Shown piece after piece: positions 15,538 to 37,361 of a DNA stretch of 64,000 nucleotides; the stretch's first letter is position 1, and every line of letters begins with the position of its first letter. The stretch lies in the sequence record OZ346201.1. The stretch is one strand, 5' to 3'. The DNA comes from a phage. The notes beneath the pieces were generated by a model. That model did not search any database. It saw only the letters and a program-made list of their open reading frames with translations, and had not been told where the DNA came from. The translations under genes and the position numbers were made by a program.

Positions 15538-15783
15538 CTATAGCTCCACTAGCAAAGTGCTTTCAAAGTGCCGTTCATGCAGACCGTTGTAAGGGACCAC
15601 TTCCACAACACCATCACGGACATACGGGGCCATCATAGTGGTATAATCTCCAAACGGGTTGGTATTGTCACTAACCACAACCACCTTCTGCCCTTCCTTG
15701 GCAGAGTGCCAAATAGATCTACACTTCATCAGGTGTTCGAGAGCTCCAGGTAAAATTTTGTTACGTTCTTTACGGGTCTTCAT
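15538..15783 (-). CDS. hypothetical protein
   Basis: 81-aa ORF, overlapping stop/start with next gene. Confidence 0.5.
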   Translation of the reverse strand: MKTRKERNKILPGALEHLMKCRSIWHSAKEGQKVVVVSDNTNPFGDYTTMMAPYVRDGVVEVVPYNGLHERHFESTLLVEL

Positions 15784-16229
15784 AACAGATATAGCTCCTT
15801 ATGAAAGTGGTCTTTTAATTTCTCACTGAGAAACTTCTTGATACCTTCCTCTAAAGTGTTTTCGATGTAGTCCAGCTTAACTGCTTCGATGGACATATCA
15901 TAGATTGCCAGCTCTAAGCTGTCAAGTCCCATCATAGCATGAACCATAAGATTTTCATCTTCAGATACATTCAGGGGACTTCCTATAACATCTGGAGGCA
16001 GAATAGTTTCCCAATTATTCTGGGTGGTAGTTCTCCCGCCATCTACTTTACGGCGCAGTTCGAATGTGTTCTTAGTGTAGAACACTTCATAAGAAACGAT
16101 ACGACTGTCACTCTCATAATAAACGAAGTTCAGGTAGGAGCCTAGCCGCAGTCGGCAAACTTCCACCCCAAACCATTGTTTCTTATAAGAATTCAGGCTA
16201 ATGCTGTCGCATTCACGTTTGCTCAACAC
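15780..16229 (-). CDS. hypothetical protein
   Basis: 149-aa ORF with GTG start. Confidence 0.5.
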   Translation of the reverse strand: MLSKRECDSISLNSYKKQWFGVEVCRLRLGSYLNFVYYESDSRIVSYEVFYTKNTFELRRKVDGGRTTTQNNWETILPPDVIGSPLNVSEDENLMVHAMMGLDSLELAIYDMSIEAVKLDYIENTLEEGIKKFLSEKLKDHFHKELYLL

Positions 16230-16245: not shown

Positions 16246-16480
16246 TTAATCTTCGTAAATCAGGATTTCTGCTTTAGGTTTTCGTGCTTTCAGGTCCAGC
16301 TCTATCCAGTGCACCATAGCTGTTTCAAGAAAAACAGCTTGGATGCATCCGTCCTCAGCGTGCCCCCACCAACATAACGAGATCTTCACCTTCGTCATCT
16401 GCATCACGAACATAAAGAATCTCTCCAGATTCGAAGTCTTTCACAACCTGATTGCTAGATAATTTTCGAATTTTTGCCAT
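16246..16480 (-). pseudogene. fourth member of the 87-aa tandem paralog family, split by a frameshift
   Basis: ATG at 16480 gives MAKIRKLSSNQVVKDFESGEILYVRDADDEGEDLVMLVGAR*; the next frame continues ..AEDGCIQAVFLETAMVHWIELDLKARKPKAEILIYED*, matching the family C-terminus (TE-[LM]-D..I.ILGE); break is at a C5/G5 run near 16363-16367. Confidence 0.45.
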
Positions 16481-16481
16481 A

Positions 16482-16745
16482 TCAGAAACCCTCTAAAAAG
16501 CTCTTGTAGAAAACAATCTCAGTATCCACACCAGTCACAATCTTGTCGTTCCTGATTTCATCGGTAAGATAGGTGTCAAAACGCAGAACCTGTGTGGTGT
16601 TGTCACACATCCACTCAGCTGTGACCATTGCGAAAATCTTAGCATCTTCATTATCTGGTGTGAATGTTACCACCTCACCGCACTTAAACTTTTCGATAGG
16701 CTGAGTGTTAGCTTTCGGTTCTGCGATAGTGATTTTTGTGGTCAT
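16482..16745 (-). CDS. small protein, tandem paralog family member
   Basis: 87 aa; same length and pattern as the two following ORFs; 1-nt stop/start overlap. Confidence 0.6.
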   Translation of the reverse strand: MTTKITIAEPKANTQPIEKFKCGEVVTFTPDNEDAKIFAMVTAEWMCDNTTQVLRFDTYLTDEIRNDKIVTGVDTEIVFYKSFLEGF

Positions 16746-17008
16746 TATTCTCCTCCTTCTTTTGAATAGCTTGTCTCTCCAAGGATGGTAATTTTGGTGT
16801 CAAGCTCTGTAACTTTCATGTTTGGCGGCAGATCGTACAACTCATTATTTTCTAAATCGAACCCCCACACACAATGTTCTCCTGTTTTGACAATCATAAC
16901 TATGTTTTGAATGCCGTCTCCGTCGCAACTTACCACGGTCCCACACGGAAAACTGTCTGCACGCTTTTTGTTCTTCACCTTAGAATTGAATACAATGCTG
17001 GTAGCCAT
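16745..17008 (-). CDS. small protein, tandem paralog family member
   Basis: 87 aa; MAT.. N-terminus, G-T-VV core, TELD..ITILGE C-terminal motif. Confidence 0.6.
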   Translation of the reverse strand: MATSIVFNSKVKNKKRADSFPCGTVVSCDGDGIQNIVMIVKTGEHCVWGFDLENNELYDLPPNMKVTELDTKITILGETSYSKEGGE

Positions 17009-17271
17009 TATTGTTCCTCCACCATAACTTCGCCAAGAATTTCTATGCAGGCATCCATTTCTGTAACAACCAAACTGTGAGGTAGTTCTACAAACACCTT
17101 TCTGAACAGGTCAAATACCCCAACATATATGTTTGCAGGATGTGATTTTACAACAAGTGCTGTATTCACATCCCCAAGTTCATCAACAAACATCACCACA
17201 GTGCCCGGAGCTACTGAGGACAGATACTTCTTAGTTTTACGGTTTGATGCAAATTTTAACTCTGTTGCCAT
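17008..17271 (-). CDS. small protein, tandem paralog family member
   Basis: 87 aa; MATELKF.., ..TEMDACIEILGE..; head-to-tail with 16745..17008. Confidence 0.6.
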   Translation of the reverse strand: MATELKFASNRKTKKYLSSVAPGTVVMFVDELGDVNTALVVKSHPANIYVGVFDLFRKVFVELPHSLVVTEMDACIEILGEVMVEEQ

Positions 17272-17286
17272 AAATAACCTCCTCTC

Positions 17287-18768
17287 TTACTTAGCGTACT
17301 CGATTAATTCCACAGTTTTCCCAAAGCTCGGGATATAATTTTTATTATACCCCTCAGTGAGGACCCATAGAGTATCGTACTTTTTCCACTTGTTGTCAAC
17401 AACCTTTTGTTCAAAGTTATGCTCAAAGTATAGGTCGGTCAGGACGATGACATCTTTTGCATTAGGTATGTTGGCATCCAGATACTCGAACACGCAAGCA
17501 GCTGTTGTGCCCCATGTTGAGTGGACCTCATAGTTGATCATCTCGTCTATGTTGCCGCGAGTGTATACTTTAACCTCTCCAACCTCAGTTGACCAACAGA
17601 ACATTGTAACCTTAAACTCTTTATACAGATTGCACAATCCGGTGATTTCATTGAACATTTTCTTTAAAGTTCTTTGAGAGATCGAGCCAGAAACGTCTAA
17701 AGCCACCACAATATCTATAGTGTTTTCCGGATTACGACCAGGAACAATAACGTGCTGGTTCTTGTTTATAGCCCCAACTTTTCGCATTGTGCTGGTCAAA
17801 GACCCAGATCGGCGACCAGGTTTTCTGTAGGTCAGTTCGGCCTTTCTTTTAGACAACATACGTTGCTTAATGATGTCTATATAGTTGATTACAGGCTTAC
17901 CTCTGTTCTTGACAAACTCACGCACCGCCTCAGGGCAACGGCCTCCGGACGCTTGCATTGCTGCCTCCAGCATATCACCAGAGTCCTGCATGGCCTGATC
18001 TTTATCAGATTGGCTGATTACAGGTTGTGGCTGATCATACCCCATAGCCTTTCCAAGATTATCACTGGTGCCACCGTTCCCACTCATGTGATCATCGGTT
18101 TGTCGCTTATCACTTTGAGAGTTCTCACCTTTACCGTTCTTACTTTTACCGTTATTCTGATCTCTTTGCTTATCAAGAACTGCATAAACGTTCTCAGCAA
18201 TCCATCCATGAAACTTCATGTCGCAGTAGCAGCTGGCTAAGAAGCCAAAAGGCTTACCTTTCATGAACGTAGTGCTTTTCCCCTTCGGGAAGAAAACACA
18301 AGGAGGTTTGCTAAAGTCAACCACAAGGCCTGTGTTGATAACGTGATCACAAGCAATATTGAACAGTTCCGGCTCAAAGCTTTTACCACGGACTAGGTGA
18401 TCACAGATAATATGCCCCACCTCATGTGACAGAAGGAAGGCCACCTCTTTCACAGATTTTGGGGAATAGAAAACTTCAGCCATCTCAAACTGCTCGTCAG
18501 TTAGAGAAGCCTTAAGAATAGCCTTGCGTTCATCAGCCAATCCCATAATGAACTCAGGACTGTAATAGATGCGTTTATGGTCGGTTGCCATGGTGGAGCA
18601 CCATGTGTGGTTTTCTACGAACTGCAACCCTGACAGTAGTGTGCCATAAAACGGCAGCTTTTCAAGGAGATACATACGTGCAGCCTGCAACATTCTCAGG
18701 GCATCATCTTTCTGCGAGGCAATGATTTCTGAACTTCTGCTATCCATTAAAACTCCAGAAGGGGCCAT
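17287..18768 (-). CDS. vWA-domain protein with N-terminal HExxH metallopeptidase-like domain
   Basis: HEVGH motif (..AFLLSHEVGHIICDH..) in N-terminal half; MIDAS-like VVALDVSGSI (DxSxS) in C-terminal half. Confidence 0.75.
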   Translation of the reverse strand: MAPSGVLMDSRSSEIIASQKDDALRMLQAARMYLLEKLPFYGTLLSGLQFVENHTWCSTMATDHKRIYYSPEFIMGLADERKAILKASLTDEQFEMAEVFYSPKSVKEVAFLLSHEVGHIICDHLVRGKSFEPELFNIACDHVINTGLVVDFSKPPCVFFPKGKSTTFMKGKPFGFLASCYCDMKFHGWIAENVYAVLDKQRDQNNGKSKNGKGENSQSDKRQTDDHMSGNGGTSDNLGKAMGYDQPQPVISQSDKDQAMQDSGDMLEAAMQASGGRCPEAVREFVKNRGKPVINYIDIIKQRMLSKRKAELTYRKPGRRSGSLTSTMRKVGAINKNQHVIVPGRNPENTIDIVVALDVSGSISQRTLKKMFNEITGLCNLYKEFKVTMFCWSTEVGEVKVYTRGNIDEMINYEVHSTWGTTAACVFEYLDANIPNAKDVIVLTDLYFEHNFEQKVVDNKWKKYDTLWVLTEGYNKNYIPSFGKTVELIEYAK

Positions 18769-18780
18769 TGGCCCCTGTCA

Positions 18781-19575
18781 TTATTTAACGTGTTTGAAAA
18801 TACCTGCCAACTCGGTCATTGTCATGCGGGTGGTCTTCATAAGATCTGTCATAGCTTTCTCCATAATTGGAGATACTACCATAAAGTTTCCTTTAGTGAA
18901 ACCTTTATTCCAGTCGGTCACCAACAGGGGTTTAAGTCCAGCTCCAAGACGTTCACCAGTTAAAGCACAGCATTTGCGAATATACGAACTCTTAAATTGG
19001 CTGAACGACAGATCAACTTTCATACCTACATCGTAGAACGTTTGACAATAGAAAGTGTAAGCTTTGGCAATCTCAACATCATCAGGTAGTGCAGGAACCT
19101 CTTCTGTAAGCTCCTCTTCGACCTCCTGAGTCTCTTTTTCCTCTTCATGCACCTGTTGCGTCATTTCTTCAATCTCTTCTGTGATAGGCTCGTTTACAAT
19201 GTCGGAAATGTGCTTCTTGGGTGCACGATAAGTAACTTTAGACATCGGTAGCATATCTTCCTCCTCTTCTTCGTCAAAGAGTGCTAGTTTATCCTCTTCC
19301 GTTCCATATTGCAAGATGAAATCTTCAAAAGTATAATCACCTTTCAATTTCTCCATACGCTCTTCGCTCAGGTGGAGCATCATCTGCTGGACAATTTTTC
19401 GATCAGTTTCGTCTTTAATCAAGACTGCAGTCTTTTTATCTACCAGACAGTCCTTTAGAGAGTTGCATCTCAATCCCACCACACAACAGTTATCAACCGC
19501 ATAAGGACCTTCATCATCTATCCGCTCCAGAGATGGGTAGAAAGGATTCCCCAGCCCGTTTTCATCTGTGTGCAT
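18781..19575 (-). CDS. hypothetical acidic protein
   Basis: 264 aa with Glu-rich centre; first 23 codons lie inside the left arm of the 254-bp palindrome; has an internal LPMSKVTYRAP segment duplicated at the start of the ORF at 20791. Confidence 0.5.
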   Translation of the reverse strand: MHTDENGLGNPFYPSLERIDDEGPYAVDNCCVVGLRCNSLKDCLVDKKTAVLIKDETDRKIVQQMMLHLSEERMEKLKGDYTFEDFILQYGTEEDKLALFDEEEEEDMLPMSKVTYRAPKKHISDIVNEPITEEIEEMTQQVHEEEKETQEVEEELTEEVPALPDDVEIAKAYTFYCQTFYDVGMKVDLSFSQFKSSYIRKCCALTGERLGAGLKPLLVTDWNKGFTKGNFMVVSPIMEKAMTDLMKTTRMTMTELAGIFKHVK

Positions 19576-19760
19576 GTCAAAAGGTATAAGGGTATAGTCG
19601 CATACTCCATCTCCTAAAAGTTTTTTACCAAATATTTGGTAAAAAACTTTTAGGAGATGGAGTATGCGACTATACCCTTATACCTTTTGACATGCACACA
19701 GATGAAAACGGGCTGGGGAATCCTTTCTACCCATCTCTGGAGCGGATAGATGATGAAGGT
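19507..19760. repeat. perfect 254-bp palindrome (two 127-bp inverted arms, no spacer)
   Basis: Right arm 19634-19760 is the exact reverse complement of left arm 19507-19633, checked block by block; centre ACCAAAT|ATTTGGT. Confidence 0.9.
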
Positions 19761-20502
19761 TATTGAGCGTAGATTGGTATCTGGGTCTGATAAGTGGACA
19801 TATTTAGATAATGAAGGACACACCTATTCCAATGGGTATGTCGATATAAAAGTAGAATACGCGGTATCATACCGCCGGAGCGGTTCTGTAACTTTCAACT
19901 TCTCTGGAGGTTTTCGATCTCTGGCTACCTCACCTTTTGTTTCCTCAGAGGAGAAGTATGAGCTGCCATTTCTTTGGATGATGGCTAACGCGACAGGAAA
20001 AACCCCCGTTAGCATCCGAGTAAAATACAACTACAACGGATCTAGTAAGATCTATGCCGAAAGTGTCTCAGCAAGTTTTTATTTTGTGATGGGGGATGGA
20101 ATCCTCAAACATATAAAGATGTGCGATATGCATGATGTTATAAATGAAGTGACTGATAAGAATGTTCTAGTGAAAGACCTCAACAATTTTTATACACCCG
20201 GAGACTATTACGTCAGCCGTCCACTGTGCATCTTTAATGCCGCACACCCTCTAGGTGAGTATTTGATCGCCAATAGCGATATTGCCAATAACCGCTTCGA
20301 GGTAGCAAGAGTTCAGAATGAGGTATTGACATCTTGCAAGAGCGGTGATAAGTTTACCGAAGAAGAGATGGGTGTTTTAGAAATGATGGGATATAAGTGT
20401 AGCCTTTGGGTAGATGAGGTGTTCAATGATTGCATCTATGGACAGGATATTTACCCATTAAAGAAGTATACTGATTCCAGTTTAATTTACGCGGAGATTT
20501 GA
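19750..20502 (+). CDS. hypothetical protein
   Basis: 250-aa ORF; start codon lies in the last 11 nt of the palindrome right arm. Confidence 0.55.
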   Translation: MMKVIERRLVSGSDKWTYLDNEGHTYSNGYVDIKVEYAVSYRRSGSVTFNFSGGFRSLATSPFVSSEEKYELPFLWMMANATGKTPVSIRVKYNYNGSSKIYAESVSASFYFVMGDGILKHIKMCDMHDVINEVTDKNVLVKDLNNFYTPGDYYVSRPLCIFNAAHPLGEYLIANSDIANNRFEVARVQNEVLTSCKSGDKFTEEEMGVLEMMGYKCSLWVDEVFNDCIYGQDIYPLKKYTDSSLIYAEI

Positions 20503-37012: not shown

Positions 37013-37095
37013 TTGGAATACTCATGCACCACCAGATGGTGAAGCGTGGGTGGTACGATGAAGGTGTTCGTCGTATTATTTATTACCATAAATAA

Positions 37096-37361
37096 CATTG
37101 TGGCTTCATAGAGTAATCTATGTCGAATAACCTCTTTAACTGCGGGAAGCCTAAACCTTATGGCAAGGTAATCCGCAACGAAGCGCTCAAAAGAGCGAAC
37201 GCTCAGAGGCCATTCCGAAAGGAAGTAGACCAGCAAGTGCGGTCGAAATGGGAGGATTCCTGTGGTTGCTTATCATAGGAATATGAGATGGTCCGATCCT
37301 ACGTGAAAACGTATGGCTATGCACGTAATGGTGCGGGTAGCTTAACGACCTACCTGAACTA
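37096..37361 (+). other. intervening segment inside the split DNA polymerase gene (intron or insertion candidate)
   Basis: Lies between the polymerase body and the ORF carrying the Pol A C-terminus; stops in the relevant frames; contains a ~52-codon ORF (MSNNLFNCGKPKPYG..). Confidence 0.4.

Follow-up and report, generated by a model that had tools for sequence, protein, structure and literature searches.

The gp014–gp016 block of rV5-like coliphages: an array of small genes restricted to Vequintavirus, and an extra G in its fourth member

Introduction

The array of small genes described here is the gp014–gp016 block of rV5-like E. coli phages, a locus already catalogued and sequenced yet uncharacterised, which occurs in a four-gene, Murica-type version in the 64,000-nt stretch of phage DNA that we analysed (the window). 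Small early 'ORFan' paralogs in tandem arrays occur in large lytic phages, and this block is an array of that ordinary kind. We place the probability of the whole explanation at around 70%, namely that the block would have arisen by insertion and duplication, that its products would be early binders, and that the single extra G which breaks the fourth gene in the window would be an error or a rare null allele. Here, we set out the layout of the locus, the relationship between its members and their distribution, conservation and predicted fold, before weighing the possible origins of the extra G.

Location and layout of the array

The window derives from a Vequintavirus coliphage of the rV5/Murica-like type, with the array region being 99.7% identical to Murica-type Vequintavirus genomes (HdK5, CM1, CarlMeissner and Murica). 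The four genes, which we call c1 to c4 after their order in the array, all lie on the minus strand. The first, c1 (17008..17271; 87 aa), is the extra member found in the Murica-type version, belongs to the c1/c2/gp014 family (phrog_10698) and is preceded by a strong GAGGAGG Shine–Dalgarno sequence. Its paralog c2 (16745..17008; 87 aa; 37–41% identity) has a start codon that overlaps the c1 stop in TAATG and a Shine–Dalgarno sequence, GGAGGA, that sits within the C-terminal codons of c1. The third gene, c3 (16482..16745; 87 aa), corresponds by orthology to rV5 gp015 (phrog_12861), is very highly conserved and is distantly paralogous to c1 and c2, while c4 (16246..16480; 77 aa if intact) is the ortholog of rV5 gp016 (phrog_12046) and is split in the window. 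All four have a good Shine–Dalgarno sequence, those of c2 and c3 being embedded in the acidic C-terminal codons of the gene ahead of each. The matches of c1 (E 7.6e-43) and c2 (E 4.8e-41) to phrog_10698 both cover positions 1–87 of 87, and those of c3 to phrog_12861 (E 8.8e-62) and of repaired c4 to phrog_12046 (E 5.1e-55) are likewise full length.

An earlier, sequence-only reading of this DNA had described a tandem array of four 87-aa paralogs linked by 1-nt stop/start overlaps, the fourth copy being broken at a C5/G5 run. Its coordinates for the three head-to-tail 87-codon ORFs (17008–17271, 16745–17008 and 16482–16745) are exact, and the fourth gene at 16246–16480 is indeed broken at such a run at 16363–16367. 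The overlaps exist at the c1/c2 and c2/c3 junctions (TAATG), with c3 and c4 being separated by a one-base gap (TGA-T-ATG). The common length of 87 residues does not extend to the fourth gene, since CarlMeissner and HdK5 encode an intact c4 protein of 77 residues and the repaired copy is therefore 77 codons long.

In rV5 the block comprises ORFs 14–16, every one annotated as a hypothetical protein (YP_002003516-518), and orthologs of gp014, gp015 and gp016 stand in the same order and context in Murica, BASEL Bas48–52 and others. Relative to rV5, the window c3 and c4 proteins are 99% and 100% identical, respectively, and relative to CarlMeissner and HdK5 all four proteins are 100% identical, the extra G aside. 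The main difference is in the first slot, where rV5-type phages have one gp014-type gene and the window has two (c1 and c2).

The array is bounded upstream by a DUF2201 metallopeptidase/VWA-like protein (17287..18768, minus strand) and downstream by a 149-aa homolog of rV5 gp017 (15780..16229, minus strand; phrog_6790), which marks the far, conserved edge of the array insertion. The corresponding rV5 neighbourhood has the Srd-like gp011 and the DUF2201 metallopeptidase/VWA protein on the upstream side and gp017–gp019 downstream. Some annotations of these neighbours in relatives look unreliable, notably the PHROG-derived labels, which call gp017 a 'tail protein' and the DUF2201 metallopeptidase an 'HNH endonuclease' or 'anti-sigma factor'. 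For the metallopeptidase (window 17287–18768), Pfam support consists only of DUF2201_N and the VWA-like DUF2201 domain. The same metallopeptidase is one gene of 486–493 aa in the window and most relatives and is annotated as two overlapping ORFs, gp012 and gp013, in the rV5 reference (NC_011041, 1757–3218), a split that probably stems from a frameshift in this older record.

Relationship between the four genes

The degree of relatedness falls from the first gene to the last. For c1 and c2 it is clear, the two being 37% identical by blastp (E 2e-11) and both matching phrog_10698. For c3 it emerges from profile comparison: hhalign aligns it with the c1/c2/gp014 profile over its full length (probability 91%, E 1e-6), and its HMM score against the c1/c2 profile, 18.5 bits, was reached by 0 of 2000 shuffled sequences. 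The case for c4 is transitive, passing through c3. Against the c1/c2 profile it scores 5.3 bits, a value reached by 12 of 2000 shuffles (p ~0.006), with an hhalign probability of 3.5%; once c3 is included in the profile it scores 15.9 bits in a collinear match across residues 9–76, which none of 2000 shuffles attained.

These values leave some room for a reading in which paralogy is limited to c1, c2 and c3, and c4 (gp016) is a small gene of unrelated origin that lies beside them by chance. In keeping with this, c4 is placed in a separate PHROGs family, has no significant blastp match, reaches E 0.027 with c3 by hhalign in addition to the low probability against c1/c2, is shorter by 10 residues, does not have the C-terminal motif, and yields an AF2 model of low confidence (pLDDT 56). 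The same c1/c2/c3 profile that detects c4, however, gives only background scores with the neighbouring proteins gp017, gp018 and gp019, and the predicted strands of c4 (residues 21–25, 33–42, 45–50 and 55–60) run in parallel order to those of c1 (25–29, 35–43, 49–54 and 59–64). We therefore regard a chance neighbour as improbable; on these profile scores, the four genes likely form a single family, which c4 would join only transitively. The two motifs by which the array had been recognised, GTVV and TE[LM]D..I.ILGE, characterise c1 and c2, are loose in c3 and are absent from c4.

Distribution and copy number

The family is narrowly distributed. An exhaustive HMMER profile search of 1.84 billion representatives recovered only three true family members, and tblastn placed the family in 118 phage records, all of them Vequintavirus. 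Both c1 and c2 occur in 44 phage records and the remaining 74 carry a single gp014-type copy, which is ~40% identical to both c1 and c2. Profile, tblastn, Pfam, NCBIfam and PDB searches found no homologs outside Vequintavirus-like phage sequences; IMG/VR contributed only two related loci, and a word-indexed search with c1 alone returned only relatives that are at least 93% identical. A more divergent relative retains the architecture, with proteins of 88, 85, 87 and 77 aa.

A comparison of array size across relatives, which had been proposed as a check, shows that Murica-type phages carry four copies and rV5-type phages three, and that Seunavirus, Mydovirus and Certrevirus carry none. The metallopeptidase of Seunavirus and Mydovirus is directly followed by the gp017 homolog with no array between them, and no family member is detectable at the array position in these two genera or in Certrevirus CR8. 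From this genus-limited distribution we infer that the array is a genus-level insertion, which would then have been expanded by tandem duplication.

A different arrangement is seen on two small ENA metagenome contigs (L019 and L020, 1355–1606), where a gp014-like protein of 83 aa (P0024) is present in single copy without c3 or c4 and is flanked by unrelated ORFs of 211 and 143 aa. This protein may represent an ancestral or a transferred single-copy state.

Selection and conservation

The sequence-only reading had called the family rapidly diversifying, a description that fits the first slot alone. The c1/c2/gp014 slot is occupied by three types at 35–42% identity, in one or two copies, whereas the adjacent c3 and c4 are 88–100% identical; across the genus, identity is 93–100% for c3 and 88–100% for c4, with dN/dS values of ~0.01 and 0–0.12, respectively. 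The difference is sharpest against the divergent relative L016, where c1, c2, gp017 and gp019 are 56–70% identical (dN 0.26–0.38) and c3 and c4 (L016 3258–3756) are 98% and 95% identical (dN 0.015–0.022). Judged by these substitution rates, purifying selection on c3 and c4 is very strong; the two are the most conserved genes of the block and its constrained core, with fast evolution confined to the first slot. Their dS against L016 (~0.63) is also lower than that of the saturated flanks, which could mean that the constraint is exceptional or that a c3–c4 module was exchanged more recently.

In several respects the locus resembles ORFan arrays of other large lytic phages, its genes being short, back-to-back, translationally coupled and downstream of host-type promoters, and the family being genus-restricted and variable in copy number with one hypervariable slot. 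It differs from them in c3 and c4, which, far from being fast-evolving, rank with the region's most conserved proteins.

Predicted fold and protein properties

All four proteins are acidic (pI 4.5–5.0). Using an 18-sequence alignment of the c1/c2/gp014 family, AF2 predicts a six-strand small barrel (pLDDT 80), so that c1, the sole member modelled with confidence, models as a generic SH3/Tudor-like small beta-barrel: a closed small barrel of five to six antiparallel strands that can be superposed on solved members of the fold. A model of c4 from a shallow alignment had low confidence (pLDDT 56), and its search against BFVD matched only its own family; structure prediction of the copies thus succeeded for c1 and gave little for c4. 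Searched against BFVD, the barrel model matches many uncharacterised phage proteins of 70–90 aa.

Similarity to the wider SH3-like superfold, which includes Tudor and KOW domains, the C-terminal domain of ribosomal protein L2 and the C-terminal Tudor domain of UvrD/PcrA, is at only 7–20% sequence identity for c1 (7–17% for Tudor domains). The modelled resemblance is at the level of the fold and assigns no function. Pfam, NCBIfam and PDB sequence searches gave sub-threshold noise only and no profile match; with regard to a role as a virion structural protein, no structural family was matched, and the predicted fold is the generic small barrel.

The extra G in the fourth gene

The lesion in c4 is a C5 run on the plus strand at 16363..16367, G5 in the coding sense (GTG GGG G CAC), which exceeds the G4 of relatives by a single base and would cut the protein off after 41 residues. 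What remains in the window is a 41-aa ORF (16355–16480, minus strand) and an out-of-frame 55-aa ORF that begins at an internal ATG (16246–16413, minus strand). At this site the sole difference between the window and CarlMeissner or HdK5 is that these two have G4 in place of G5. A probe of 81 bp that spans the site found G5 in none of 77 GenBank phage records, the gene being intact with G4 in all 77, and in a collection of 15 billion proteins the exact intact c4 protein is present on 652 contigs against 2 for the 41-aa fragment. In other lineages the run is replaced by GTAGGT, GTAGGA or GTGGGT with Val-Gly-His kept, the tripeptide being encoded as GTAGGTCAC, GTAGGACAC or GTGGGTCAC. Exact-pattern scans for the site with G4 to G6 had no match in IMG/VR, JGI metagenomes or GTDB genomes, because the few relatives in those sets use synonymous codons.

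Three origins had been suggested for the break, namely a sequencing error, a decaying copy and a slippage-prone switch, and the comparative data separate them. In nearly all genomes the tract is G4 within a single open frame, rather than a slippery tract with both frames maintained. As the run is not conserved and c4 is under strong purifying selection, neither a conserved slippage switch nor a pseudogene at the level of the lineage is supported, and the extra G is not a conserved regulatory device. The more specific proposal that the run regulates c4 output, either as a contingency switch or by programmed +1 ribosomal frameshifting at GUGGGGGCA, draws on the recurrence of the lesion at an identical site in three assemblies and on the G GGG G context, which may let tRNA-Gly re-pair in the +1 frame (quadruplet or +1 slippage). 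Against it, c4 normally has G4 and an uninterrupted ORF, the run has been lost by synonymous substitution elsewhere, 4–5 bases fall far below the length of known contingency tracts, and the run is followed neither by a stimulatory slow codon nor by a stop, the next 0-frame codon being GCA. These sequence comparisons largely refute the proposal already, and we consider it extremely unlikely.

An error is the best fit for the window, where other lesions of the same kind are present. Compared with RudolfGeigy (98% identical), the only frame-disrupting 1-nt indels in the window are the c4 site and two private 1-nt G-run deletions on the plus strand, at ~36902 (TCTGGGAAG to TCTGGAAG; shared by 0 of 104 phage records) and ~37344 (GCGGGGTAG to GCGGGTAG; shared by 0 of 48). 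Both fall within the DNA polymerase gene or beside it, and the one at ~36902 frameshifts exon 1 upstream of motif C, a lesion that would be lethal if real. Being private and in or near an essential gene, the two deletions are best taken as homopolymer-length errors of the window assembly. In addition, a zero-spacer 136-nt inverted repeat (19498–19769, centred on 19633/19634; directly matching arm ~127–128 nt) replaces ~410 bp that in CarlMeissner, RudolfGeigy and rV5 hold the 5' end of an Srd-like 'anti-sigma' gene, divergent sigma70 promoters and the start of a fucosyltransferase gene; it looks like an assembly fold-back of k-mer size (~127 nt). Together, the polymerase deletions and the fold-back junction point to assembly error for the extra G in c4 as well.

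Rfam searches touched both regions. The 'miRNA' matches at 19.6 kb reflect only the artefactual hairpin, and no RNA family was found in the array. The family-A DNA polymerase gene contains a group I catalytic intron (37080–37315, plus strand; RF00028, gathering score 50) that scores 64.7 bits and lies immediately ahead of the motif-C 'HDE', and relatives annotate the gene as a two-piece join.

Against the error reading, G5 recurs in two independent Logan assemblies, and the variant may therefore be a real, recurrent or recombining allele. One, ERR3378739_12037, is an 82-kb contig from a distinct strain with flanks 96–97% identical and no fold-back; the other, ERR12350084_2886548, is a 1-kb contig whose haplotype differs at 8–11 sites in the shared kilobase. 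If the G5 variant were a genuine circulating allele, a loss-of-function or strong hypomorph of c4, it would have arisen once and spread by recombination or arisen repeatedly by polymerase slippage, and c4 would be conditionally dispensable. Its presence on two or more haplotypes, spread over three separate sequence sets, argues for this, as does the ERR3378739 contig, in which the c4 site is the only 1-nt indel relative to RudolfGeigy within the conserved genes of the block and all other genes in 20 kb are intact. A different c4 frameshift, a few bases downstream (GHA-RTDASK...), is also found in two further assemblies. A CGA codon is common to all three G5 carriers and is frequent in G4 isolates too, so this marker does not set the carriers apart as a distinct clade.

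Weighing against a genuine allele, G5 is carried by none of the 77 curated isolate genomes, and the constraint on c4 (dN/dS 0–0.12; 95% identity in a relative whose neighbouring genes are ~60% identical) means that null alleles should be selected against. Raw public assemblies contain truncated variants of c1, c2, gp014 and c4, all at low frequency, those of the first three about as commonly as those of c4, which looks like background noise, and G5 thus also fits a background of sporadic frameshifts at homopolymers and simple repeats. The window, moreover, has its other G-run length errors in an essential gene. On balance a genuine allele seems unlikely, and the extra G in the window would most probably be a homopolymer-length assembly error or, failing that, a rare null allele; for the window we put the odds of an assembly or sequencing error against a real allele at about three to one.

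One raw assembly has two lesions in the array: on the related Logan contig SRR19891748_1854 (2060–2677) the gp014-type gene and c4 are both truncated to 58 aa, the c4 frameshift falling just after Gly-His-Ala, and c3 is intact. Either this assembly is error-prone or the array has two broken members.

Expression and proposed history

In rV5 the array lies in transcription unit 11–26, driven by sigma70-type promoters and outside the block of genes 27–66 that is treated as late, although the paper is silent on the gp014–gp016 ORFs, their paralogy and fold (PMC3606486). The rV5 record annotates one such promoter, P11, at the head of the transcription unit. As members of this unit the genes are presumably made early, and their location fits the guess that they are early host-interaction genes. 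A scan of the locus for promoter and terminator consensus sequences gave nothing above shuffle expectation, and the literature searched by locus tag, protein accession and Vequintavirus transcriptomics has nothing on the array genes.

The history that we propose begins in the Vequintavirus lineage, where, as the distribution suggests, a single small gene was inserted at a site between the DUF2201 metallopeptidase and gp017. Tandem duplication would then have produced the translationally coupled acidic proteins of ~80–87 aa, probably expressed early from host-type promoters, and their most likely role would be to bind host or phage proteins, or nucleic acids, stoichiometrically. A bolder version casts c3 and c4 as acidic, SH3-like and near-invariant proteins directed at one particular host target, and the recurrent c4 knock-outs as escape or relaxed-selection alleles. 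Such a protein would be, for example, an anti-defence factor or one that is sensed by the host immune system, with knock-outs arising at a slippage-prone site when the host factor is absent or senses c4. The knock-outs in raw assemblies (G5 in three datasets, the second, downstream frameshift in two others) are the events that it would account for; we hold it to be very improbable and retain early binders, with an extra G that is an error or a rare null allele, as the preferred account.

Implications

The finding has little importance for biology at large. What is documented is that rV5 gp014–gp016 are one genus-restricted paralog family, with a predicted SH3-like fold and a copy number of 0, 3 or 4 across Vequintavirinae, to which c4 would likely belong through c3. 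For users of the sequence, the window assembly holds further errors, a broken DNA polymerase and a fold-back junction among them, and the c4 frameshift should be annotated as a pseudogene or a switch only with read-level support. Because they are unusually conserved, gp015 and gp016 are sensible genes with which to begin functional studies of therapeutic rV5-like phages.
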